Part shown: in pieces, positions 1 through 15,302 of the stretch
Numbering within the stretch: position 1 is the first letter of the stretch
Layout of the letters: every line of letters begins with the position of its first letter
Virus genome (UHGV): UHGV-1382276
Reading direction: 5' to 3' (one strand)
DNA length: 23,588 nucleotides
Source: a virus
Notes under the pieces: generated by a model
What the model was told of the DNA's origin: nothing
Seen by the model: only the letters and a program-made list of their open reading frames with translations
The model's database searches: none
Translations under genes and position numbers: made by a program

Positions 1-255
1 TAACGCGTCGCCGGAAGCCACGTCATAAACCGTTTTACCCCGATGATCTTCAACGAGATGCCACGATGACTCATCACTGTTGAAAACAGCCACGAAACCA
101 GCCGGAATATCTGGCGGTGCAATATAGGTACTGTTTGCAGGCAGACCTGTATGAGGCGGAATATATGCGTCACCTTCACCAATAAATTCATTAGTTCCGG
201 CCAGCAGATTATAAATTTTTATGGTCCGTGGTTGTTCACTCATTCTGAATGCCAT
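1..255 (-). CDS. tfa: Tail fiber assembly protein Tfa, N-terminal 85 codons only; the rest of the gene lies beyond the window start
   Basis: Reverse-complement translation of 255..1 gives [85 protein letters not shown], which I recognise as the N-terminus of lambda Tfa. The ATG (255..253) overlaps the stf stop (TAATG). Absent from the ORF track because it is truncated by the window edge. Confidence 0.85.
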
Positions 256-3200
256 TATGCAAGCCTCACAATATAGTTAACGGTGATGGTATGTCCATGT
301 GAACCAATCGCAACGGAGTGCGTATGAGCACCAATACCGACAGTATGTGCGTGTGCACCTGCGCTTGCAGCAGTACCCGATACAGAGTGCGTATGAGCGC
401 CTGCAGAAGAAGTGTTAACACTGTATTTAGAATAATCAGGTGATCCACTTCCCGGAGCACCACTGGAACCACCTGAAACAAATGTCATCGAATGGGTATG
501 TGCACCGGCTGAAGCAGCCGTACCGCTAACACTATGGGTATGCGCACCAGTGTTATTCGTGGATTTAGTGCCGTAATCAAACGACGATGTGGTTTTCGTC
601 CCCAAATCAGTACTGGATGCGCTGGCGCTGTGGGTATGCGATTTTATGCCGTCCTGTTCCTGAGACAATACGGCACGACCACTGGCGGGCTTGCCCTTAA
701 TCGTCCAGCCACGCATATCAGGGATCACGCCTGACGGATAAGCGGCTGCAAGTTTCGGGTAGGCAGATTTGTCAAAAGTCTGCCCCTGCATCAGGGCATA
801 ACCAGACGGAACGGTATCTGATGGCCACGGGATTGGTGCGCCGATTGGGTAGCTTTCTGGTGGAAGATTTTTCGAGGTATAAACTTCTGCCCAGTCTTCC
901 TCAAAACCATAACCGTCTCTTGAAGAACGGTAGAACAGACCACCATTTCTGTAATGCGCCTTCATCTGCAGGGTCCGGCAACTTCCGACTCCGGTATAGA
1001 AGTTAACCAGAATATAGCTGTCGCCAGAGCGGGTGACATTATAAGCGCCTGATTCGGCATTCCAGGGAACGCCACCATCCGCATCGGCATATGTATCCGT
1101 TGCCCTTCTGGCAAAAGCAGCCACATGCGCGGCGGTTAAAGTAATATCTTTGGAACCATCAAACTCAACACCAGAAACCCGTCTTGGCGTTTGCAGCTTT
1201 GTTTCTGTTAATGCATTACCGTTCAGACTTGCGGACAGTTTGGTTCCAATAACCAGTTCGCCAGTTGCGTTATCAATAGCAAACGGTCTTAATGTATTCC
1301 AGCCACCATAAACATCACCTTGATTGGTAAGCAGCAGGTAAGTTTTAGCGCCATCATTACGCCATAATGCCCCATACTCCCCACCTATCATTCGAATCTG
1401 ATTACCACCACGCGCTACAATTTCGTCTGTGGCAAAAAGTTTTTTGCACGACAAATTATCGTTAACGATTAACGAATGAGACTCATAAAAACCACGCCCA
1501 CTCTTAAAATCAAGGATAACGTCCGCCGCGATACATTCAGTCGCTGGATTTGTTGCCCCAAACTTATAGGTCGTATCATTAACAACGAGATCAGCACCAG
1601 GTGCGGATATTGACAGGCCATCTTCGATAAACGCAAAAACAGGGAAAGCAGCGCCATCAACATAGAACACAGAGCGCAAATCATCGCCCTTATTACTCAT
1701 CATTATTGAGTGGATGGCTCGTTCATTGTTTTGATATTGCCAGAACATTCCATAAGCATAACGCCCCCTGTCAGTCCAGCCACCAGGCATAACAAATCCG
1801 TTAAACTCGCAGTTATTCATCGGATCGCCTGCGGTTCGCGTTGCCGTGGTGATAATGACCCTTGATGCCAGTTCGCTTACTGAGCCAGCAGAACGCATAA
1901 CAACAACAGGGTAATATTTTCCAGATGTTGCACCTGCAGGAGCGTTAACCCGCACATAACGCATACCACGCTTATCAGCAAAGTCTGTTTTACTGACCGC
2001 GTTAATGTTGTTCAGGAAGCGTCCCTTATCGGGTATATCAGCGCCGTTCTGGTCTTTCTGCAGACGTTTCTCTGCATTGTCATAGGCTGATTTTACTGCC
2101 TTTGGCGTTGCCGCCAGCGTTTCAGACGTACTGTTGGTCGCACTGCTGAGCTGTACTATCCCCTTTTTCGTCGTGCTCGCATCCTCAAGCGCCACGGCGG
2201 ATGCAATATCCTCTGCCCGTTTTGCCGCTGTCTCGGCGCGCGTTGCCGCGGATTCCGCCGTACTTTTGCTCTGTGCTGCCGCCGTCGCACTGCCAGCTGC
2301 CTCTGTCGCCTTCGTGGATGCTGTCGTGGCGCTGCCCTTCGCTGCTGACGCCTGTCTGGTCGCCTCATCTTTTGAAGCAGACGCCGATGATGCCGATGAC
2401 GCCGCCGAACTGGCTGACGATGCGGCAGCCGTTTTTGAGGATTCTGCGCTGGTTTCCGACGCTTTCGCGTTCGTTTCGGATGTCTTCGCTGCGGAAGCAG
2501 AACTCGCTGCTGCGCTGGCCTGTTCAGTGGCTTCGCCAGCCTTCGTTGTGGCTGTTGAAGCGGATGATGCGGCGCTTTCTGCCGATTTTCCGGCGGCGGT
2601 GGCACTGGCTGAGGCCTGCCCGGCACTTGTTGACGCGGCGCTGGCAGATGATGCAGCCGCTGTTTTTGAGCCTGCCGCAGCTGAGGCGCTCTGTCCCGCT
2701 GCCGTCTCAGAAGACTTAGCGTTCGTCTCGGACGTTTTTGCCGCCTTCGCGGAATTTCCTGCCGCCGTTGCCGAGGAAGTTGCGCTACTGGCGCTCGAGG
2801 ATGCGTTCGTTTCTGATGATTTCGCTGCCTCTTTTGAGGCCGCCGCATCCCGGGCTGAGGTGGCAGCTTCTGACGCTTTCGTGGTCGCGGTGGATGCAGA
2901 AGTGGCTGCTGATTGTTGTGACGCTGCGGCATTCGTTTCTGACGTTTTCGCGGCACTGGCACTGGTAGCTGCCGCGCTTTTTGAGGACTCTGCAGCAGCA
3001 GCACTTTTCGATGCTTCAGTGGCCTTTGTTGATGCCGTTCCTGCGCTGGAAGACGCTGACTGAGCCGACGTCGCGGCCTGCCCGGCTGATGTGCTGGCTG
3101 CGCGTGCTGAGCCTGCAGCATCAGTCGCATGGGTTGCCGCCTCACGGGCTGATGTGCTGGCATCACTGGCTGACTTCTTCGCGGCTGCCGTGTTCTGTGC

Positions 3201-3560
3201 CACCACGGACGCGTTACGCGCCACCTCTTCCACCATCAGCTCAAAACGGCGCAGTGCCTCCGGACGGGCATCATCCTCCGTCATGGCACCGAGAAAATCA
3301 TTCAGCGTACCGGGTCGGGAATCTTCATACACGGTGATGGTCCCGGCATGTGACGGCGGGAATCCTTCCACCAACAGAATAACGCTGTACTGACCGTACT
3401 CAACGTCCATGCTGTAACGCCCGGCTTCATCCGGATTTTCTGAGGCCAGCGTGTTCACCACCACCGTGGTGCTGTTACGTTTTGCTTTCAGCTGGATTGT
3501 GCAGTTCTGTACCGGTTTTCCTGTGCCGTCTTTCAGTACACCTGAAATCTTTACTGCCAT
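255..3560 (-). CDS. stf: Side tail fiber protein, intact, 1101 aa; lambda-like N-terminus and C-terminus with an expanded and partly replaced middle
   Basis: ORF track 255..3566. The N-terminal ~120 aa ([35 protein letters not shown]...) and the C-terminal ~200 aa (GAPIPWPSD...KSHTHSASA...[16 protein letters not shown]) match lambda Stf as I recall it. I place the start at the ATG 3560..3558, preceded by GGGGTG, rather than the GTG at 3566 used by the ORF track. Confidence 0.9.
2202..3209 (-). repeat. Ala/Ser/Thr-rich low-complexity coding repeat forming the stf shaft, with a recurring AAKTSETNA unit
   Basis: stf residues ~120-455 are almost entirely A/S/T/K/E with quasi-periodic units. AAKTSETNA recurs three times at ~71-83 aa spacing, and the DNA shows matching near-repeats around 2461-2490, 2711-2745 and 2930-2950. 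The plus-strand ORFs in this interval are shadows of this region. Confidence 0.7.
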
Positions 3561-3571
3561 ATTCACCCCAC

Positions 3572-4291: not shown

Positions 4292-7200
4292 TCAGCTAAT
4301 CGTGATGCCTGCAGTGGCTTTCTTCATCACCACAACCAGCAGATCGCTGATACTGGTTGTTGGTGTCCAGTTATTCGCTCCTGATGAAGATACGGTGAAT
4401 GTCAGTGTCAGTGTCCCCTGTCCGGCAGGCATATCTATAACTGAGGAAAATACGCCCTGAGCATCCGTCGTGGACTGATTAAAAATCTCCTGACCATTGC
4501 GGGTCACTCTTAACCGGCAGGTTGAATACCAGTATGACTGTTGGTTATTACTGTTGAAATTCTCATGCTTACCACCGCGGAATAACACTGGAGGTATCAT
4601 GACCTGCCGGTCAAACTTCTGATCATCACTGATTCTTACCGTGATGGTGCCACTGGCATAACTGTTCGTGCGGGGGAAAGACTTGCTGACCGTTTTGACA
4701 ATATCGCCTTCAATCTGATTGGCTGACAGTTTCCCCTTAATCTGACAGTTCTCATTAATCGTGACGTTGTTGAGCGTCCCGGAGTTCGCATTCACACTGC
4801 CACTGATATCCGCATTTTTAGCAGTCAGCTTTCCGTCCGGTGTCAGGGAAAATGCCGGTGGATTTCCACCGCTGGTAATGGTGGGGGCCGTCAGGCGTTT
4901 CAGGAACACGTCGTTCATGAATATCTGATCGCCCTGACCAACAAACATCGGTTTTGTGTTGCCATTCGCAGGATTAACCATCGCAATCCTGTCCGCCGCC
5001 AGCAGCACCTGACTCTGCATGCCGTCAGGGGTGTTCTCAATACCGGCACCAATACCCGCGATATAAAGGCGTCCGTCCTGCATCTGCTGCAGCTTCACAG
5101 CCCACATGCTGTTCAGGTTATTATTTGTATCAACCTGAACCTTCTGTATCTGCTGAATTGCCGCACTCTGGTCTTCCAGTTTCTTATTGACGGTCTGCGT
5201 GATTTCATTGCTGACATCCGTAATGGACGTCCTGATTTCAGCCAGGTCAGGCGCAAGCTGACCGTTATCAATCTGCGTCCACAGCTCCTGAGCCAGATGG
5301 CTTTTCCCTATCTCGCCTTTGAAAAAATCCAGATAGCCGGATGCATCATCACTCGGCTGACCAACAGCCTCCACGAATGCCGATTTGCCAACGGTGTTCA
5401 CACTGCGGATATAAAAGTAATAATCATGGCCCGGTTTGATATTGATACTGGCGGCTATCCAGTACATCCCCGTGCCAAGATAGCGCGCGCTGGTTTCAAC
5501 CTGCCTGATATCCGCAATCCGCTTTTCCGAGAACCAGAACTCAAACTGTACCGTCGGATCATAAACCGCAAGATGCGGCGTGGCGGTTATCTGAAAATAC
5601 CCCGGTGTCAGCTCAATCTGCGACGGCGCTGCCGGTGCGGCAATCCGGAACGATACCGATGCCGGATCGCCCTGCTGCCCCCACGCATTTACTGCCCGGA
5701 CTGTCAGCCTGTAGTTCCCCAGCGCCAGTTGTGTGAAGCGGTATGTGGTTTCCGCCGTCCGGGCTGTGCTGACCAGCCGCTCACTGCCGTCATCCGCTGC
5801 CACGGTCAGGCGAAGCATAAAGCTCACCCCCTTCACCACCTTCGGCGTGTCCCAGCGGGCCAGTACCTGATATTCCCCGCTGTCTGCGGTGACTTCGGCA
5901 GTCAGGTGCTGCACCGCTGGCGGCGTGACACCATTCACCGTGCCGCTCTGGTCGCCGTCAAAGTGCGCCCCGTTATCCACGATGGCCTCTTTTTCCGGTA
6001 CATGCTGCACGGCGGTGATGGCATACATACCGTCGTCGTTCTCACGGATACTCACGCAGCGGAACAGGCGCTGGCGCAGCGTCGGCAGCTTCAGCCCCCA
6101 CACGCTGTATCCGGCAACGCCGTCAGGAACACGGCTCACTTTTACCTTCACGCCGTCGGTGACGGACTGGACCTCCACGCTGACCGGATTGCCACTTCCG
6201 TCAACCAGGCTTATCAGCGTGGTACCGGAGGATGGCAGCGTGATTTCACGGTCGAGCGTCAGCGTCCGGGTCTGGCTGTTCACCGCCAGCACGCGCCCGC
6301 CGGTGCGGATACCGGCATAGTCATCATCGCAGATTTCAATGACATCGCCCGGCACATGGCGAAGCCCTTCTGCGCCCACGCTGAAATCCACGGTCTGTGT
6401 TTCCAGCAGTTCTGTTTTAATCAGCCACAGCCCGGCGCGATGTGCCTGCCCCCGGCTGGTACAGCCAAAGGCATCCATCTTCGTGACGTTACGACCGTAA
6501 CGGGCAATGGCCTGCGTGTCCTCCACAAGCTCTGTCGCCGTCTCCCAGCCGTTATTCGGGTCAATCCAGTTCACCTCAACGGCATTATGGCGGTCCTTCA
6601 GGGCGCTGAAGCTGTAGCGGAACGGCGCGCCATCATCCGGCATCACCACATTACTGCGGTTATAGGTCCACACCTTATCTGATGGTCGGTCCTGCACGAA
6701 CGTCAGCGTCTGCCCGTTCCATACCGGCATACAGCGCATCGCCGAGCAGAAATCACTGAGCACATCCCACGCCTTGCGCTGTGTGGTCAGGTACGCATTA
6801 CAGATGATGCGCGGCTCCGTGCCGCCAAAGCCGTCCGGCACTGACTGGTCGCAGTACTGGCCGATGACATACAGCGCCCATTTATCCACATCCGCCGCAC
6901 CAAGACGTTTCCCCATGCCGTAGCGCGGATGGGTCAGCATATCCCACAGACACCAGGCCATGTTGTTGCTGTATGCCGGTTTAAACGTTCCGTCCCAGAT
7001 ACCGCTGTATTGCCGCGTCTGCGGGTTATAGTTCGACGGCACCTGCAGAATGCGCCCGCGCAGATGATAATTACGGCTCACCTGCTGGCTGCCGAACTGC
7101 TCCGAATCCACCTGCACGCCGACCAGTGCCGTGTTCGGGTAGCCCTGTTTCACATCGATGATTTCGGTGTATGACGACCAGAGCGTTTTGTTCTGCAGCT

Positions 7201-7774
7201 GGTCTGTGGTGCTGTCCGGCGTCATCCTGCGCATCCGGATATTGAACGGGCGCGGCGGCAGGTTACCCACCACCACCGAGGCCAGATACTGCGAGGTGGT
7301 TTTGCCCTTAATGGTGATGTCTTTTTCCGTCACCCAGCCACCATTACGCTGTATCTGAACCAGCAGGCGAACTTCCGACGGATTCCGGTCCCCCTTTGAG
7401 GTGGTTTCCACCAGTGCCTGCACGCCGAAGGTAAAACGCAGTCGGTCAATGTTTGCCGACGTGATGGTCCGGGTGATCGGCGTGTCGTATTTCACTTCCG
7501 TACCCAGCACCGTCTCGGAGCCGGAGGATTCAAATCCCTCCGGCGGTGTCTGCTCCTGCTCACCGGCCCGGAACACCACCGTGACGCCGGAGATATTGGT
7601 ATTCCCCTCACTGTCCAGCACTGGCGTACTGTTCAGCAGCACGCTTTTTAATCCATCCACCGGACCTTCAACCGGCCCTTCGCTGATGGCATCGATCACA
7701 CTCAGCAACTGCGTGGACTTCAGGTTGTCCTTCGCTTCGCGCGGGGTATGCCCCTTACTGCTGCCTTTACCCAT
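4292..7774 (-). CDS. J: Tail tip central fiber / host specificity protein J, 1160 aa
   Basis: ORF track. The N-terminal ~800 aa ([34 protein letters not shown]...) match lambda J. The C-terminal ~350 aa diverge from what I recall of lambda J and are 28 aa longer than lambda's 1132. Confidence 0.93.
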
Positions 7775-7833: not shown

Positions 7834-8505
7834 TCATCGACCAATCACCACAACCTGACCACCATCCCCTTCGTCTGCCGTGCTGATCTCCTGAGAGACC
7901 ACCCGCGACCCCACGCGCATTTCACCGTACAGAACCGGCAGAACATTGCCCTGGGCAACCATGTTATCCAGTGAGGAGAAATAGGTGTTCTGTTTGCCGT
8001 TATCCGTTGTCTGTGTACGGGGAGTTCTGGCTTTCGGTGCCAGCATCTGCGCCACACCACCGAGCACCATACTGGCACCGAGAGAAAACAGGATGCCGGT
8101 CATACCACCGGCCCCAATGGCTGCCCCCCATGCTGCAAGGGTGGCCCCGGCGGTAAAGAATGATCCGGCAATGGCGGCAGCCCCCAGGACAATCTGGAAT
8201 ACGCCACCTGACTTGGCCCCGGCGACTCTGGGAACAATATGAATCACAGCGCCATCAGGCAGAGTCTCATGTAACTGCGCCGTTAATCCGGACGTGCTGA
8301 CATCCTGCCCGGCAATCCGTACCTGATACCAGCCGTCGCTCAGTTTCTGACGAAACGCCGGGAGCTGTGTGGCCAGTGCGCGGATGGCTTCAGCCCCCGT
8401 TTTCACACGAAGGTCGATGCGGCGGCCAAATCGTTGTAAATCCCCGTAAAGGCAGATGCGCGCCATGCCCGGTGACGCCAGAGGGAGTGTGTGCGTCGCT
8501 GCCAT
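7834..8505 (-). CDS. I: Tail tip assembly protein I, 223 aa (ubiquitin-like beta-grasp N-domain)
   Basis: ORF track. The sequence MAATHTLPLASPGMARICLYGDLQRFGRRIDLRV... matches lambda gpI. Its 5' end overlaps the 3' end of K by 103 nt in a different frame. An alternative internal start at Met14 cannot be excluded. Confidence 0.88.
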   Translation of the reverse strand: MAATHTLPLASPGMARICLYGDLQRFGRRIDLRVKTGAEAIRALATQLPAFRQKLSDGWYQVRIAGQDVSTSGLTAQLHETLPDGAVIHIVPRVAGAKSGGVFQIVLGAAAIAGSFFTAGATLAAWGAAIGAGGMTGILFSLGASMVLGGVAQMLAPKARTPRTQTTDNGKQNTYFSSLDNMVAQGNVLPVLYGEMRVGSRVVSQEISTADEGDGGQVVVIGR

Positions 8506-9146
8506 TTGTCGGTATACCTCTCTCGTTTGCTCAGTTGTTCAGGAATATGGTGCAGCAGCTCGCCATCACCACAGTAAATGGCGGCATGATTCGGCACCGA
8601 TGAACCAAAACAGCACAGCAGCACATCGCCCGGTTGTGCTGATGACAACGGCACCTGATACAGCCCTGTGGCCTCCAGATTATCCAGATAGAGATTCTGG
8701 CCGTTACGCCACCAGTCATCCTCACGATGAAAGTCCGGCATCTCAATCCCCGCCAGATGATAAGCATCCCGGAACAGTGTGTAACAGTCCGTCACACCGT
8801 GCTCAAAGCGCCGCCCGGTGAGATGCGGCACACAGCGGAACTTATGAATCGTCCCCCGGCAGACCAGCCACCACGGCAAATCACTCTGCACCTGCAGCCG
8901 CCGGTCGGCCTCACTCAGCCAGGGCAGACCACCGGGGTGGCTGTGGACCAGCGCCACAATCTCACCCTGCATTTCTGCCTGCAGCCAGTCTTCCGGCGAC
9001 ATACGGAAATACGCCTCCGGCTCACCGGAGATATTCACGCAGGGGAAATATCTTTCCCCCTCCGGCGTGCTTACCACGAAGCCGCACGACTCCGCTGGCG
9101 CACATCGCCGGGCGTGCGCCAGAATCGCTGATTCTGTCTGTGTCAT
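8403..9146 (-). CDS. K: Tail tip assembly protein K with JAMM/MPN metallopeptidase and NlpC/P60 domains; longest ORF is 247 aa, the conventional lambda start corresponds to Met49 (8403..9002)
   Basis: ORF track. HSHPGGLPWLSEAD (H-x-H-x7-S-x2-D) is encoded at 8904..8945, with a P-A-E-S-C-G motif ~49 residues upstream. The C-terminal half has NlpC/P60-like Cys (GVTDCYTLF) and His (NHAAIYCGDGELLHH). The rest matches lambda gpK. Confidence 0.8.
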   Translation of the reverse strand: MTQTESAILAHARRCAPAESCGFVVSTPEGERYFPCVNISGEPEAYFRMSPEDWLQAEMQGEIVALVHSHPGGLPWLSEADRRLQVQSDLPWWLVCRGTIHKFRCVPHLTGRRFEHGVTDCYTLFRDAYHLAGIEMPDFHREDDWWRNGQNLYLDNLEATGLYQVPLSSAQPGDVLLCCFGSSVPNHAAIYCGDGELLHHIPEQLSKRERYTDKWQRRTHSLWRHRAWRASAFTGIYNDLAAASTFV

Positions 9147-9151
9147 GGGAT

Positions 9152-9850
9152 TTACTGCGAAAGTTTGTTAATGGAAAGGAAGCCGCCAAAGTTGCCGACG
9201 TTATTGCGGAACTTACAACCGCTCAGGCATTTGCTGCATTTATCCTTCGTGATATCGGACGTTGGCTGGTCATATTCATCCGCGACAGCCGGACCGCTAT
9301 AACCGCACTCGTCACCGCGATAGGTCCAGGTGCAGGTGTTGGCCAGCATGATACGTCCCGGAAAAACAGCGCCATCCGTTTCCGTCGGCGTGGACAGTAC
9401 AAAGGAGGCACTCACCGCGCTCAGTTCGCTGCACTGCTCAATGCGCCAGCGGCTGATCACCTCCTGCTCCGGATCGGCATAACTGTTTCCGTTGACGAAG
9501 TTCACCGCATCCAGAAAACGGGCGTAAACCTTACGCCGGACCACCGTTCCGCCGACCAGACTCTGCATATCTTCCGCCATCCCGGTGACCATACCGTACA
9601 GGTTAGAAACCGTCAGCGTGGGGCGCGTACTGGTGCCTTTGCCATTCAGTTCAAAACCGCTCCCCTGAATGGGATACGGCTGATACTGTCGCCCCTGCCA
9701 GGTGACCGGCTCACCTTTTTCGTTCTGCTCATTACAGAAAAAATAACGTTCTCCACCGACCTCTGTCAGGTCGATTTCCCAGAGCACCACGCTGGCCGAC
9801 TGCTCCGCACGGGTGCATTCATTCAGTGTTTCCTGCCGGATATCCTGCAT
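9152..9850 (-). CDS. L: Tail tip assembly protein L, 232 aa
   Basis: ORF track. Length and sequence (MQDIRQETLNECTRAEQSASVVLWEIDLTEV...) match lambda gpL, with a C-terminal cysteine cluster. The start overlaps the M stop by 1 nt. Confidence 0.92.
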   Translation of the reverse strand: MQDIRQETLNECTRAEQSASVVLWEIDLTEVGGERYFFCNEQNEKGEPVTWQGRQYQPYPIQGSGFELNGKGTSTRPTLTVSNLYGMVTGMAEDMQSLVGGTVVRRKVYARFLDAVNFVNGNSYADPEQEVISRWRIEQCSELSAVSASFVLSTPTETDGAVFPGRIMLANTCTWTYRGDECGYSGPAVADEYDQPTSDITKDKCSKCLSGCKFRNNVGNFGGFLSINKLSQ

Positions 9851-10179
9851 CAGTTCACCACCTGTTCAAACTCTGCGCTGAACTCAACACGCAGCATACT
9901 GACCCGCGACGACCATTTTGCGCAGGTCACCTTTATCTGCCGCCACTCATAAGGCGGCGTCCACAGAAAGGATTTCCAGCCCCCGTGCTCTTCCAGAAAC
10001 GACTCCAGTACCGTGGCCTCCTCACGGGGGACAGAAAGCGTCACGCTGTACGTTTTCAGGTTGGCATTCAGCCCGGCAGGCGCTCGCTGAGAATAGCCAT
10101 CACCAAAGCGCACCTTTCTTACAGAAGGGACCGAAGCCACATCCATACCGGGTTTCACTTTCCAGCGGAAGGTCTTCAT
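9850..10179 (-). CDS. M: Tail assembly protein M, 109 aa
   Basis: ORF track. MKTFRWKVKPGMDVASVPSVRKVRFGDGYSQRAP... matches lambda gpM. ATGA overlap with the H stop. Confidence 0.92.
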   Translation of the reverse strand: MKTFRWKVKPGMDVASVPSVRKVRFGDGYSQRAPAGLNANLKTYSVTLSVPREEATVLESFLEEHGGWKSFLWTPPYEWRQIKVTCAKWSSRVSMLRVEFSAEFEQVVN

Positions 10180-12737
10180 CGTCCACCTCCGGAGAACAGG
10201 CCACCATCACGCATCTGTGTCTGAATTTCATCACGGGCACCCTTGCGGGCCATGTCATACACCGCCTTCAGAGCAGCCGGACCTATCTGCCCGTTCGTGC
10301 CGTCGTTGTTAATCACCACATGGTTATTCTGCTCAAACGTCCCGGACGCCTGCGACCGGCTGTCTGCCATGCTGCCCGGTGTACCGACATAACCGCCGGT
10401 GGCATAGCCGCGCATCAGCCGGTAAAGATTCCCCACGCCAATCCGGCTGGTTGCCTCCTTCGTGAAGACAAACTCACCACGGTGAACAATCCCCGCTGGC
10501 TCATATTTGCCGCCGGTTCCCGTAAATCCTCCGGTTGCAAAATGGAATTTCGCCGCAGCGGCCTGAATGGCTGTACCGCCTGACGCGGATGCGCCGCCAC
10601 CAACAGCCCCGCCAATGGCGCTGCCGATACTCCCGACAATCCCCACCATTGCCTGCTTAAGCAGAATTTCTGTCATCATGGACAGCACGGAACGGGTGAA
10701 GCTGCGCCAGTTCTGCTCACTGCCGGTCAGCATCGCCGCCATATTCTGTGCAATACCATCAAAGGTCTGCGTGGCTGCACTTTTTACCTGCGACATACTG
10801 TCCGTGGCGCTCTCTTCCCACTCACTCCAGCCGGACTTCAGGCCTGCCATCCAGTTCCCGCGAAGCTGGTCTTCAGCCGCCCAGGTCTTTTTCTGCTCTG
10901 ACATGACGTTATTCAGCGCCAGCGGATTATCGCCATACTGTTCCTTCAGGCGCTGTTCCGTGGCTTCCCGTTCTGCCTGCCGGTCAGTCAGCCCCCGGCT
11001 TTTCGCATCAATGGCGGCCCATTTTGCCCGTTGCTGCTGTGCGAATTTATCCGCCTGCTGCGCCAGCGCGTTCAGGCGCTCCTGATACGTAACCTTGTCG
11101 CCAAGTGCAGCCAGCTGGCGTTTGTACTCCAGCGTCTCATCTTTATGCGCCAGCAGGGATTTCTCCTGTGCAGACAGCTGGCGACGTTGCGCCGCCTCCT
11201 CCAGTACCGCGAACTGACTCTCCGCCTTCCACAAATCCCGGCGCTGCTGGCTGATTTTCTCATTTGCTCCGGCATGCTTCTCCAGCGTCCGGAGTTCTGC
11301 CTGAAGCGTCAGCAGGGCAGCATGAGCACTGTCTTCCTGACGATCGCCCGCAGACACCTTCACGCCGGACTGTTTCGGCTTTTTCAGCGTCGCTTCATAA
11401 TCCTTTTTCGCCGCCGCCATCAGCGTGTTGTAATCCGCCTGCAGGATTTTCCCGTCTTTCAGTGCCTTGTTCAGTTCTTCCTGACGGGCGGTATATTTCT
11501 CCAGCGGCGTCTGCAGCCGTTCGTAAGCCTTCTGCGCCTCTTCGGTATATTTCAGCCGTGACGCTTCGGTATCGCTCTGCTGCTGCGCATTTTTGTCCTG
11601 TTGACTCTGCTGCTCAGCCTTCTTTCGGGCGGCTTCAAGCGCAAGACGGGCCTTTTCACGATCATCCCAGTAACGCGCCCGCGCTTCATCGTTAACAAAA
11701 TAATCATCCTTGCGCAGATTCCAGATATCGTCCGCTTTCTTAAACGCGGCCTCTGCCTTAATCAGCATCTCCTGCGCGGTATCAGGACGACCAATATCCA
11801 GCACCGCATCCCACATGGATTTGAATGCCCGTGCTGTCCTGTCTGCCCAGGTTTCCAGCGTGCCCATGTTCTCTTTCAGGCGGCGGGTCTGGTCATCAAA
11901 CCCTTTCGTCGCGGCCTCGTTCGCCGCCTGCAATGCCCCGGCTTCTTCGCCGGAACGCTGCAACTGAGCAACATACGCAATCTGCTCCGCCGTCACGTTA
12001 TGGAACTGGCGCGCCATCGCTGTCAGCCCCGACGTCGGGTCAGTGGTCAGCTTCCCGAAGGCTTCAGCGACCTTGTCCACCTCCACGCCGGATGCAGAGG
12101 AGAAACGCGCCACACTCTGGCTGATGGACGCAATCTGAGCCTCACCGCTTACCCCCGCCTTAACCAGTGCGCTGAGTGACTCGCTGGTCTGGTTAAACGT
12201 CAGCCCTGCCGCCTGCCCGGCTCTGGACAGGACCAGCATACGATCTGCCGTCAGCCCGGCCTGATTGCCGGAAAGGACCAGCGTTTTGTTGAAATCGGAC
12301 AGGGTTGAGTTGCCCTGATACCAGGCATACGCCAGCGCACCGGTCGCCACCGCCAGCGAGGTGGCCCCCACCATCGGCAGGGTGATCGCACCGGCAAGCC
12401 CCCGGAACATGGGGATCATCCCGCCGAAGGAGTCCTTCACCTGACCCCCCTGTTGCAGCAGGATCAGCCACGGACTTTGCCCGCCTGCAAGCTGCGTGGC
12501 CACGTCAGTGAACTGCGCAGGCAGCATACGCATGGCGGCTTTATACTGCCCGACGGAAATTCCCGCTTTCTGTGCAGCCAGCGCCTGCCGGTTCATCGAC
12601 TGTTCAACGACTGCCGCTGTTTTTTTCGCATCACTTTCCGTACCGGAAAAATGACGCCTGACTCTGGCCATCTGCTCGTCAAATCTGGCCGCATCCAGAC
12701 TCAAATCAACGACCAGATCGCCTACCGGTTCAGCCAT
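10176..12737 (-). CDS. H: Tail tape measure protein H, 853 aa
   Basis: ORF track. Same length as lambda gpH; long alpha-helical, Ala/Gln/Glu-rich protein; position between the G-T chaperone genes and M. Confidence 0.93.
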   Translation of the reverse strand: MAEPVGDLVVDLSLDAARFDEQMARVRRHFSGTESDAKKTAAVVEQSMNRQALAAQKAGISVGQYKAAMRMLPAQFTDVATQLAGGQSPWLILLQQGGQVKDSFGGMIPMFRGLAGAITLPMVGATSLAVATGALAYAWYQGNSTLSDFNKTLVLSGNQAGLTADRMLVLSRAGQAAGLTFNQTSESLSALVKAGVSGEAQIASISQSVARFSSASGVEVDKVAEAFGKLTTDPTSGLTAMARQFHNVTAEQIAYVAQLQRSGEEAGALQAANEAATKGFDDQTRRLKENMGTLETWADRTARAFKSMWDAVLDIGRPDTAQEMLIKAEAAFKKADDIWNLRKDDYFVNDEARARYWDDREKARLALEAARKKAEQQSQQDKNAQQQSDTEASRLKYTEEAQKAYERLQTPLEKYTARQEELNKALKDGKILQADYNTLMAAAKKDYEATLKKPKQSGVKVSAGDRQEDSAHAALLTLQAELRTLEKHAGANEKISQQRRDLWKAESQFAVLEEAAQRRQLSAQEKSLLAHKDETLEYKRQLAALGDKVTYQERLNALAQQADKFAQQQRAKWAAIDAKSRGLTDRQAEREATEQRLKEQYGDNPLALNNVMSEQKKTWAAEDQLRGNWMAGLKSGWSEWEESATDSMSQVKSAATQTFDGIAQNMAAMLTGSEQNWRSFTRSVLSMMTEILLKQAMVGIVGSIGSAIGGAVGGGASASGGTAIQAAAAKFHFATGGFTGTGGKYEPAGIVHRGEFVFTKEATSRIGVGNLYRLMRGYATGGYVGTPGSMADSRSQASGTFEQNNHVVINNDGTNGQIGPAALKAVYDMARKGARDEIQTQMRDGGLFSGGGR

Positions 12738-13583: not shown

Positions 13584-14324
13584 TTAACTGGCGGTGACGT
13601 TGATTTCTGCAACCGCAGCAAACTCACCATTACCGGATACGACCGGAATGTTGACCTTGCCTGCAGCAACACCTTTCACGGTGATGGTCATACCACTGAC
13701 CGACACGGTGGCTTTTGTTTTATCCGCAGACACCGCACGGAAGCTCTTGTCGGTTGCGCCCTCCGGCTGGAATGCCACGGTCAGCGTGGTGCTCTGCCCT
13801 TTCACTACGGAAGCACTGGCGGGTGTCACCGTCATGCCGGTTGTCGCCGTCACCGTGCTGCGATCTTCTGCCATCGACGGACGTCCCACATTGGTGACTT
13901 TCACCGTGCGGGTGATCACTTCCTTCGCCGTCACCGCCTTACCGATACTGCTGACCCAGCCACGGAACACATCGACCGTGCCGTTCGGGAAGCGGATTTT
14001 ATAGGCACGGGTATCGCCTTCATTAAACCACGCCAGCAGCGCCTGCTGCCCCTGCTCTCCGGGCATCCACGCCAGCGTGAAGCTGGTATCTCCGGCAGAT
14101 TTCTGCCCCTGCCCGGTCGCAGTCCAGTCTGCATCTTCATCATCGAGATAGCTGTCGTCATAGGACTCAGCGGTCAGTTCGCCGGGCGTCAGGTCTTTAA
14201 CTTTTGCCAGACGCGACCAGTCAACGTCTGAAAGCGGATTCGCATAAGGGTCACCGCTCCCCTTATAAACCCACAGGGTGGTCCCGGCACCTTTCACCGG
14301 CATTGTAGGATTTGGTACAGGCAT
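13584..14324 (-). CDS. V: Major tail tube protein V, 246 aa, with C-terminal Ig-like domain
   Basis: The ORF track ORF (13584..14354) contains [27 protein letters not shown]..., the lambda gpV N-terminus. I chose the start at the Met giving 246 aa; the 10 upstream codons are probably not translated. Confidence 0.9.
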
Positions 14325-14331
14325 AGCGTCC

Positions 14332-14727
14332 TCACATTTCATAGGTAATGACATAAGTCAGATCGGCTGAACTCCACAGGCCCGCATCATCGTCGCGCCG
14401 GTAGTCATAGCCGCTGGCCACCATACTGGTGATCAAATCTGACAGTGCCGGGATATCGCTCATCACCGGATAAATCCGGGACTCCATCCACGCATCCAGC
14501 TCTGAATCCGGCACCTGAGCAGGCAGGAAAACTTCAATATGCAGCTCCGCCTGCCAGGTATCGCTGTCCAGCTCTTCGCCCGTGTATTCAGCGCCGGTGA
14601 GATAAACGGCAATTGCCGGAAAATCCGCCTCATCAAAAACAGCGGGGCGACCATCAAAAAGCGTCGCCCCGGTGTCATGCTTCTCCAGTGCATCCAGTAC
14701 GGCTGCACGGAGTTCAGTATGTTTCAT
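14332..14727 (-). CDS. U: Tail terminator protein U, 131 aa
   Basis: ORF track. Matches lambda gpU; ATGA overlap with the Z stop. Confidence 0.92.
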
Positions 14728-15302
14728 CGCTTTATTACCATTCTCAGTTGATGCTGCAGCGCATAGCCCAGCTCTTTCGGAAGACGTTCACGCCGTATCC
14801 GTTCAATATTCTGTTTAAACGCCGTGGTAAGCGGCACCGCCATCGGGATTTTCACCACATCAATGGGGTAACGGTTTTTCCCGGCCACACGCTGCATGAC
14901 ATGCCACCGGCCATTTTTCAGTTGCTGAATAAACGCGCCGGGAATACGACGGTTTCCCACCACAAGCACGCTGCCGCCACCTTTCAGGGATGAACGCTGC
15001 CCCTTTTTACGACGTCTGCGGCGGGAAAGGACAACCCGCGCGTTACCCAGCTTGATTACGGGCAAATCCCCCCGGTTAACCCTGATTCTGGCCTGCGGAT
15101 TTTTGACCGTGGCCCTTTTCAGCCTGGCCCTTTCCTTTACCAGTTTCCGGCGTACCTTTGTCTCACGGGCAACCTGTGACGCAGACTGCGATATCGCGGA
15201 TGACGCAACGCGGTTAATGGCCATTGCGGCGGCACCAGGCACCGCCGTTTTGCTGATACGGCTGAGGTTTTCAACGGCCTGCTCAAGACCTTTTATGGCC
15301 AT
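14724..15302 (-). CDS. Z: Tail completion protein Z, 192 aa
   Basis: ORF track. Matches lambda gpZ in length and sequence. Confidence 0.92.
   Translation of the reverse strand: MAIKGLEQAVENLSRISKTAVPGAAAMAINRVASSAISQSASQVARETKVRRKLVKERARLKRATVKNPQARIRVNRGDLPVIKLGNARVVLSRRRRRKKGQRSSLKGGGSVLVVGNRRIPGAFIQQLKNGRWHVMQRVAGKNRYPIDVVKIPMAVPLTTAFKQNIERIRRERLPKELGYALQHQLRMVIKR

Follow-up and report, generated by a model that had tools for sequence, protein, structure and literature searches.

The stretch of DNA analyzed here (the window; 23,588 nucleotides of the virus genome UHGV-1382276) carries a lambda-like prophage whose real tail gene K is very probably the 247-codon open reading frame (ORF) at positions 8403..9146 on the minus strand. 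The product, with a predicted mass of 28.3 kDa, consists of a JAMM/Prok-JAB domain followed by an NlpC/P60 (C40) domain. The first 48 codons (9003..9146, minus strand) lie outside the conventional 199-aa lambda K, and they encode Glu19, the predicted catalytic glutamate of the JAMM domain. In the lambda reference sequence, K is only 199 aa because one missing G closes the frame upstream of Met49, the conventional start.

Coding evidence for the 48-codon extension

The K frame opens at the ATG at 9146..9144, which is the first possible start codon in frame and follows the stop codon of the upstream gene L (TAA, 9154..9152) after the five nucleotides ATCCC. Codon 49, the ATG at 9000..9002 on the minus strand, is the conventional lambda K start and equals position 14276 in NC_001416. 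J02459 and NC_001416 both place K, with 199 aa, at 14276..14875 and the end of L at 14127. The first-pass annotation, a reading of the window made without database searches, had these points right: the position of the opening ATG, its distance of 5 nt from the L stop, the place of Met49, and the gap between L and K in the reference. An open stretch of 48 codons alone, however, is weak evidence for a longer gene.

Profile comparison of the two forms favored the longer one, which had been proposed as the real product. The 247-aa K matched the Pfam family Prok-JAB (PF14464) at 52.3 bits over profile positions 3-112 of 114, whereas the 199-aa K scored 23.3 bits, matched only the C-terminal positions 63-112, and stayed under the gathering cut-off of 25 bits. 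The 50-residue extension by itself matched Prok-JAB positions 3-54 of 114, the N-terminal half of the profile (E = 4.2e-5), so the signal is more than chance. PHROG families 2635 and 7305 likewise start at K residue 1.

Conservation was followed in close and distant relatives. The close protein set comprised 54 full-length homologues with 68-98% identity (55 sequences with the K of the window), and the distant set comprised 109 representatives from an exhaustive HMMER search, with identities of 33-79% and a median of 38%. Residues I8, L9, P17, E19, C21, G22, Y33, N38, and F47 were invariant in the 54 close homologues. In the distant set, most N-termini lay in a span from about 8 residues upstream to 5 residues downstream of Met1. 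At the DNA level, 165 loci gave 116 unique coding sequences (CDSs); they came mostly from IMG/VR viral contigs, with a few lambda-type GenBank records and one Escherichia coli prophage. An ATG was present at the homologous start, 4-10 nt past the L stop, in 116 of 116 unique close CDSs. At about 85% amino-acid identity, the ratio of nonsynonymous to synonymous substitution rates (dN/dS) was 0.09-0.14 in codons 2-48, compared with 0.10-0.16 in codons 49-213. By this measure, purifying selection acts on the extension as it does on the remaining K.

These results were weighed against the conventional annotation, in which Met49 is the K start and the 144 nt before it form an untranslated spacer or regulatory element. 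The reference annotation and the UniProt entry TIPK_LAMBD both give 199 aa, recent papers quote the same length ("199 in total" in PMC7291167), and a strong Shine-Dalgarno sequence precedes Met49. Even so, it is extremely improbable that the conventional start is the right one. The K frame is under codon-level purifying selection upstream of Met49, and the same stretch gives the match to the first half of the JAMM profile and is confidently predicted to fold as part of a JAMM domain. Its conservation, with a near-invariant Glu19, extends to relatives at 33% identity. In addition, the reference frame is closed only by the lack of a base that is present in every other source examined. The L-K gap was also considered as a noncoding RNA or regulatory element, and this candidate was rejected because the codon-level selection there contradicts it and no Rfam family matched either strand over 8800..9300 at E <= 1.

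A predicted JAMM domain that depends on the extension

We are highly confident in assigning K residues 1 to ~105 as a predicted JAMM/MPN+ zinc metalloprotease domain, for which the motif, the full-domain profile score, and the predicted MPN fold were all found. In the AlphaFold2 model of the 247-aa K, the mean predicted local distance difference test score (pLDDT) was 83 and the predicted template modeling score was 0.78. Residues 1-40 were modeled at a pLDDT of 90-95, with a helix at 3-15 and strands at 21-27 and 30-36. The best Foldseek matches to the model in the PDB were PfJAMM1 structures 5LD9/5LDA (TM 0.65, root mean square deviation 2.7 A), and Rpn11, CSN5, and AMSH were among the other top matches. 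The suggestion that the 247-aa form belongs with the JAMM/MPN families is thus borne out by a confident N-terminal model whose best PDB matches are JAMM enzymes.

The codon of Glu19, GAG at 9090..9092 (minus strand), sits in CAPAESCGFVV. The zinc-ligand part of the motif, H68-S-H70-x7-S78-x2-D81, was read from the sequence at 8904..8945 (minus strand), and Glu19 lies 49 residues before His68, in agreement with the first reading of the window. Position 19 was Glu in 55 of 55 close sequences and in 102 of the 109 distant representatives. The other motif residues were similarly retained in the distant set (C21 in 97, G22 in 105, H68 in 105, H70 in 103, S78 in 98, and D81 in 105). In sequence and profile alignments, Glu19 fell on the glutamate of the E-x-C-G element in 2KKS, 2KCQ, and PfJAMM1 (5LD9/5LDA), which places the catalytic Glu upstream of Met49. 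Between Met49 and His68, no conserved alternative Glu was found in the distant representatives. Therefore, a K protein started at Met49 would lack the catalytic Glu, as had been claimed, together with three core secondary-structure elements. In the predicted active site, Glu19 would activate the catalytic water, His68, His70, and Asp81 would bind zinc, and Ser78 would stabilize the intermediate.

Archaeal and prokaryotic JAMM/MPN+ enzymes whose substrates are ubiquitin-like proteins (PfJAMM1, the HvJAMM1 "desampylase," and the solved MPN proteins 2KKS and 2KCQ) have the E-x-C-G...H-S-H-x7-S-x2-D signature and the predicted fold in common with K. When the K-family profile was compared with 2KKS, 2KCQ, and PfJAMM1, the E-values ranged from 5e-14 to 1e-11. 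The similarity of K to the NCBIfam desampylase model is weak (residues 3-103, 29.7 bits against an equivalog cut-off of 130 bits). K differs from those enzymes in its fusion with an NlpC/P60 domain and in its role in virion assembly, and its substrate is a predicted one.

The second domain of K, residues 111-224 (8475..8816, minus strand), in all likelihood belongs to the NlpC/P60 cysteine peptidases; its predicted catalytic residues are Cys121, His187, and His199. It matched the Pfam family NlpC/P60 (PF00877; gathering cut-off, 23 bits) at 49.3 bits over profile positions 1-105 of 105. C121 was retained in 103 of the distant representatives, and H187 and H199 were each retained in 104. Structures of the E. 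coli C40 enzyme MepS/Spr match the K-family profile, and the Cys-His-His residues are conserved in K. In contrast to MepS/Spr, K has no signal peptide context or cell-wall-binding modules, and its role is in tail assembly in the cytoplasm. As gpK was, moreover, not found in virions (PMC10721106), a peptidoglycan substrate is doubtful.

One missing G in the lambda reference

The origin of the 199-aa K was traced to a single base. Where the window reads GGAGGCGTATTTCC, J02459/NC_001416 reads GGAGGC-TATTTCC in the alignment. The missing G is at 9012 in the window (minus strand) and falls between reference positions 14266 and 14267. The form with the G, GGAGGCGTATTTCC, is also found in lambda imm21, HK629, DE3, Lambda_AGU (LC730321), PV340536, and KT232076. 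Without the G, the first 45 codons in NC_001416 are out of the K frame and belong to a separate 76-aa ORF beginning MTQTESAILAHARRCAPAESCG, and the first in-frame ATG past the shift is Met49. The first-pass annotation had regarded the L-K gap as an annotation artifact. An artifact is indeed supported, but its cause is a one-base gap in the reference that closes the frame and not a mischosen start.

The two alleles differ sharply in the databases. In 2.9 million IMG/VR viral contigs, the allele without the G had no exact match, whereas the allele with the G had at least 120. In metagenome contigs, the corresponding numbers were zero and at least 119. No 100% match to the reference stretch was found in the 5426 complete E. 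coli genomes searched; the best match was 99.3%, equal to one gap, at 8137 places in 4103 matching genomes. Among 10 contigs encoding the exact lambda 199-aa protein, none had the allele without the G and 8 had the allele with it. Of the lambda-type records read, only OR974322 and OR474059 have the gap in addition to J02459 and NC_001416. Both have coordinates identical to those of the reference, so reference-guided assembly is likely, and OR474059 is marked UNVERIFIED.

From these sequence comparisons, the missing G is most likely a sequencing error of the 1982 reference, and a private mutation of the stock is less likely. If the sequenced lambda cI857 S7 stock did carry a real mutation, its K would have been split into the 76-aa ORF and the 199-aa protein, which would mean that laboratory lambda can do without the JAMM domain. 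Laboratory lambda has another known frameshift, in stf (PMC10721106), and two further database records lack the G. However, one of these records is the UNVERIFIED entry, the other was obtained from a swab metagenome as a lambda "isolate," and reference-guided assembly is likely for both. The G is also present in all other lambda-derived stocks read (DE3, OM418625-7, Lambda_AGU, PV340536, and KT232076); OM418625-7 are three lambda hybrid records, for two of which the G was inferred from the match length. The chance of a real stock mutation is accordingly rated as small. In the commercial supplier's sequence of lambda cI857 ind1 Sam7, an "inserted G at 14266" is given as a difference from J02459, at the position of the missing base.

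A programmed frameshift joining the two reference ORFs was considered and rejected, because the frameshifted allele occurs only in the reference and its derivatives. Among the papers searched, none was found that comments on the missing G or the start of K. PMC12315714, the source of a 247-aa lambda record, does not discuss the K start.

Choice between Met1 and Met49

The two candidate starts differ in their ribosome-binding context. Met1 (ATG 9146) has no Shine-Dalgarno sequence, its best duplex being +0.7 kcal/mol, and the RNA around it is weakly folded (-7.2 kcal/mol). The RNA around Met49 is strongly folded (-25.8 kcal/mol). The Shine-Dalgarno-like GGAGG upstream of Met49 (9014..9018, minus strand) lies within the Pro43-Glu44-Ala45 codons. 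It had been noted about 13 nt from the ATG; the motif is present as described, but the spacing is 11 nt.

Several points weigh against the 247-codon reading and its explanation of the reference gap. In lambda-type sequences, the GGAGG pairs strongly with the anti-Shine-Dalgarno sequence (-9.5 kcal/mol), and its spacing of 10-11 nt from ATG49 is long but usable. Some internal initiation at Met49 is possible in lambda-type sequences. Gene callers often choose Met49 despite an open frame, and four clusters of 199-aa proteins (P0059, P0060, P0065, and P0067) hold about 11,000 member sequences. The missing G, finally, may be a real mutation of the sequenced stock.

The conservation of codon 49 was compared with that of the GGAGG. 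Among the 55 close sequences, position 49 was Met in 27, Ile in 23, Leu in 4, and Val in 1; among the 109 distant representatives, it was Met in 15, Ile in 65, Leu in 14, and Val in 6. Codon 49 was ATG in 76 of 117 unique close CDSs and ATT, ATC, ATA, or CTG in the other 41. In 40 of these 41 CDSs with an Ile or Leu codon, the GGAGG was kept. Since the GGAGG is kept without Met49, it is explained by the conserved Pro-Glu-Ala codons.

These counts also bear on the idea that both starts are used and that K encodes dual products, the 247-aa K and a nested, Met49-started protein of 199 aa that retains only the NlpC/P60 domain and has a role of its own. In favor of such a nested product, the -9.5-kcal/mol duplex stands before ATG49 and none stands at Met1, ATG49 and GGAGG occur together in 75 of the 117 unique close CDSs, some phages have an NlpC/P60-only K homologue (Iyer et al., PMC1779556), and the pair would resemble other nested phage genes. 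On the other hand, the Ile or Leu codons in 41 of 117 CDSs, the persistence of the GGAGG in 40 of them, and the presence of Met in only 15 of 109 distant representatives indicate that a start at this site is not conserved. The Met49 site also lies in strongly folded RNA, and the 199-aa form would keep a nonfoldable half JAMM domain (residues 49-105) before the peptidase. Dual products are thus unlikely. A more specific version, in which a low level of L-coupled full enzyme is made together with a GGAGG/ATG49-initiated, NlpC/P60-only protein that has a separate role at the tail tip, is slightly less probable still. If two starts were used, the "199-aa gpK" of the literature would describe a real second product and not an artifact.

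Proposed expression of K and action on I

With Met1 as the start of the 247-aa K, the absence of a Shine-Dalgarno sequence and the position 5 nt past the L stop mean that K translation is most likely coupled to that of L. The putative coupling junction (9147..9154, minus strand) comprises the L stop TAA and the 5-nt spacer before the K ATG. Ribosomes terminating at L would initiate K there, and this coupling would keep K at a low, substoichiometric, catalytic level. By both mass spectrometry and cryo-electron microscopy (cryo-EM), gpK was undetected in virions (PMC10721106, PMC12617516). A low level of K fits an assembly enzyme that is absent from virions.

K would act in tail-tip assembly on the ubiquitin-like protein I and then stay out of the virion. 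The ubiquitin-like nature of I and its cleavage by the JAB domain of K were predicted by Iyer et al. in 2006 (PMC1779556), and following that work, the JAMM domain would process I past the glycine at the end of the beta-grasp domain of I. The I gene of the window (7834..8505, minus strand) is a 223-aa ORF that shares 103 nt with the 3' end of K. Its Pfam match (PF06805) covers residues 14-97 and is followed by VAGAKSGG and a Gly/Ala-rich linker; the ubiquitin-like fold is taken from PMC1779556. In cryo-EM, only residues 135-223 of gpI were resolved, in the tail-tip lumen. This partial resolution is compatible with processing by K without demonstrating it.

The start of I presents a mirror-image problem. 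PGAP calls I as a 190-aa protein from a GTG overlapping the K stop. This model cuts about 20 residues off the Lambda_tail_I ubiquitin-like domain (residues 14-97 of the 223-aa ORF). The ATG at 8505 has a Shine-Dalgarno-like GAGAGAGG (-8.5 kcal/mol), and there is none at Met14 (8466) or at the GTG.

Spread of the 199-aa call in annotations

The 199-aa K call also stands on records that have the G, namely, lambda imm21, HK629, and DE3; on these records, the model is copied by homology from the reference. UniProt TIPK_LAMBD is still 199 aa and K in NC_001416 is still 14276..14875. By contrast, PGAP calls the full 744 nt on E. coli prophages, as does the 2025 lambda record PV340536. For the identical E. 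coli prophage gene, the 744-nt PGAP call is named "C40 family peptidase" (WP_024168874.1). The 247-aa lambda K sequence is on at least 1000 contigs, under names that include "PAD1/JAB1 superfamily metal-dependent protease" and "C40 family peptidase."

In locus L171 (1057..1800), Met49 was called although the upstream frame is open. Such Met49 calls are likely due to the lack of a Shine-Dalgarno sequence at Met1 and the presence of the GGAGG at Met49. The 199-aa calls were also considered as a natural truncated allele; this was rejected because the frame of L171 is open and the reference allele was found in 0 of the 10 contigs with the exact call. In several genome assemblies, among them contigs of these 10, the 199-aa call results from single-base indels that interrupt the frame in homopolymers of the K extension, and these indels look like assembly errors and not biology.

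Further irregularities were seen in individual records. In L292, L295, and L297, a G was lost from the GGGGG run equivalent to window positions 9056..9060, and L299, L300, and L301 have other indels in the extension. In KT232076 (L007, 563..1198), K was begun at the GTG of codon 37, giving a 211-aa protein that also lacks Glu19. The exact lambda 199-aa K was filed under the names Staphylococcus aureus and Bacillus paralicheniformis (P0269 and P0278); these filings are most likely lambda control DNA contaminating the assemblies.

Relation to known systems and consequences

Lambda gpK (TIPK_LAMBD, NP_040598) is the same gene as the K of the window; in both, K lies between L and I and shares 103 nt with I. 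The reference entry differs in that it lacks residues 1-48 and therefore Glu19, the first helix, and two strands. The TAPK/TAPI proteins of Iyer et al. (2006, PMC1779556) have the same JAB+NlpC/P60 architecture and the same L, K, I, J neighborhood, and the catalytic residues of both TAPK domains are conserved in the window. The gene position expected of a TAPK was also found, K lying between L (PF05100) and I (PF06805)/J. The K of the window is thus a typical member of this family and differs from it in nothing substantive. The N-terminal truncation of the lambda reference entry is not mentioned in PMC1779556.

The JAB+NlpC/P60 architecture, published in 2006, and the 247-aa form, which is routine in RefSeq prophage annotation, are already known. 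What is new is the reason for the gap in the reference, namely, the one missing G. The gain is one of curation, not discovery, and consists in correcting the K entries of the lambda reference and of UniProt. For tail assembly in siphophages, lambda serves as the reference organism. The canonical protein of J02459, NC_001416, and TIPK_LAMBD lacks the catalytic Glu and one-third of the JAMM domain, and structural and interaction papers have used this truncated form (e.g., PMC7291167). Any cloning, complementation, two-hybrid, or structural experiment that starts from the 199-aa ORF would be done with a crippled protein. gpK is the one essential lambda tail protein of unknown role and location (PMC12617516), and the corrected start makes the 2006 prediction, that the JAMM protease K processes the ubiquitin-like I in virus assembly, directly testable.

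Gene neighborhood

Over 1 kb around K, the window matches prophages in many E. coli chromosomes at 100% identity and the DNA of phage lambda at about 98.4%. The tail genes on the minus strand of the window form a lambda-like row in the order H, M, L, K, I, J. Upstream of K are H (10176..12737, 853 aa), M (9850..10179, 109 aa), and L (9152..9850, 232 aa), the last being taken from the ORF list and matching Pfam PF05100 at 338 bits; downstream of I is J (4292..7774, 1160 aa). Two antisense ORFs, at 8727..9131 and 9140..9952 on the plus strand, were attributed to the high G+C content of the coding strand.

J is 1160 aa in the window, compared with 1132 aa in lambda (PMC7291167). An ORF of 1103 aa is present at 255..3566 (minus strand), where the lambda side tail fiber gene would sit. 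The length of J and this downstream ORF indicate that the host-range end of the prophage differs from that of lambda.

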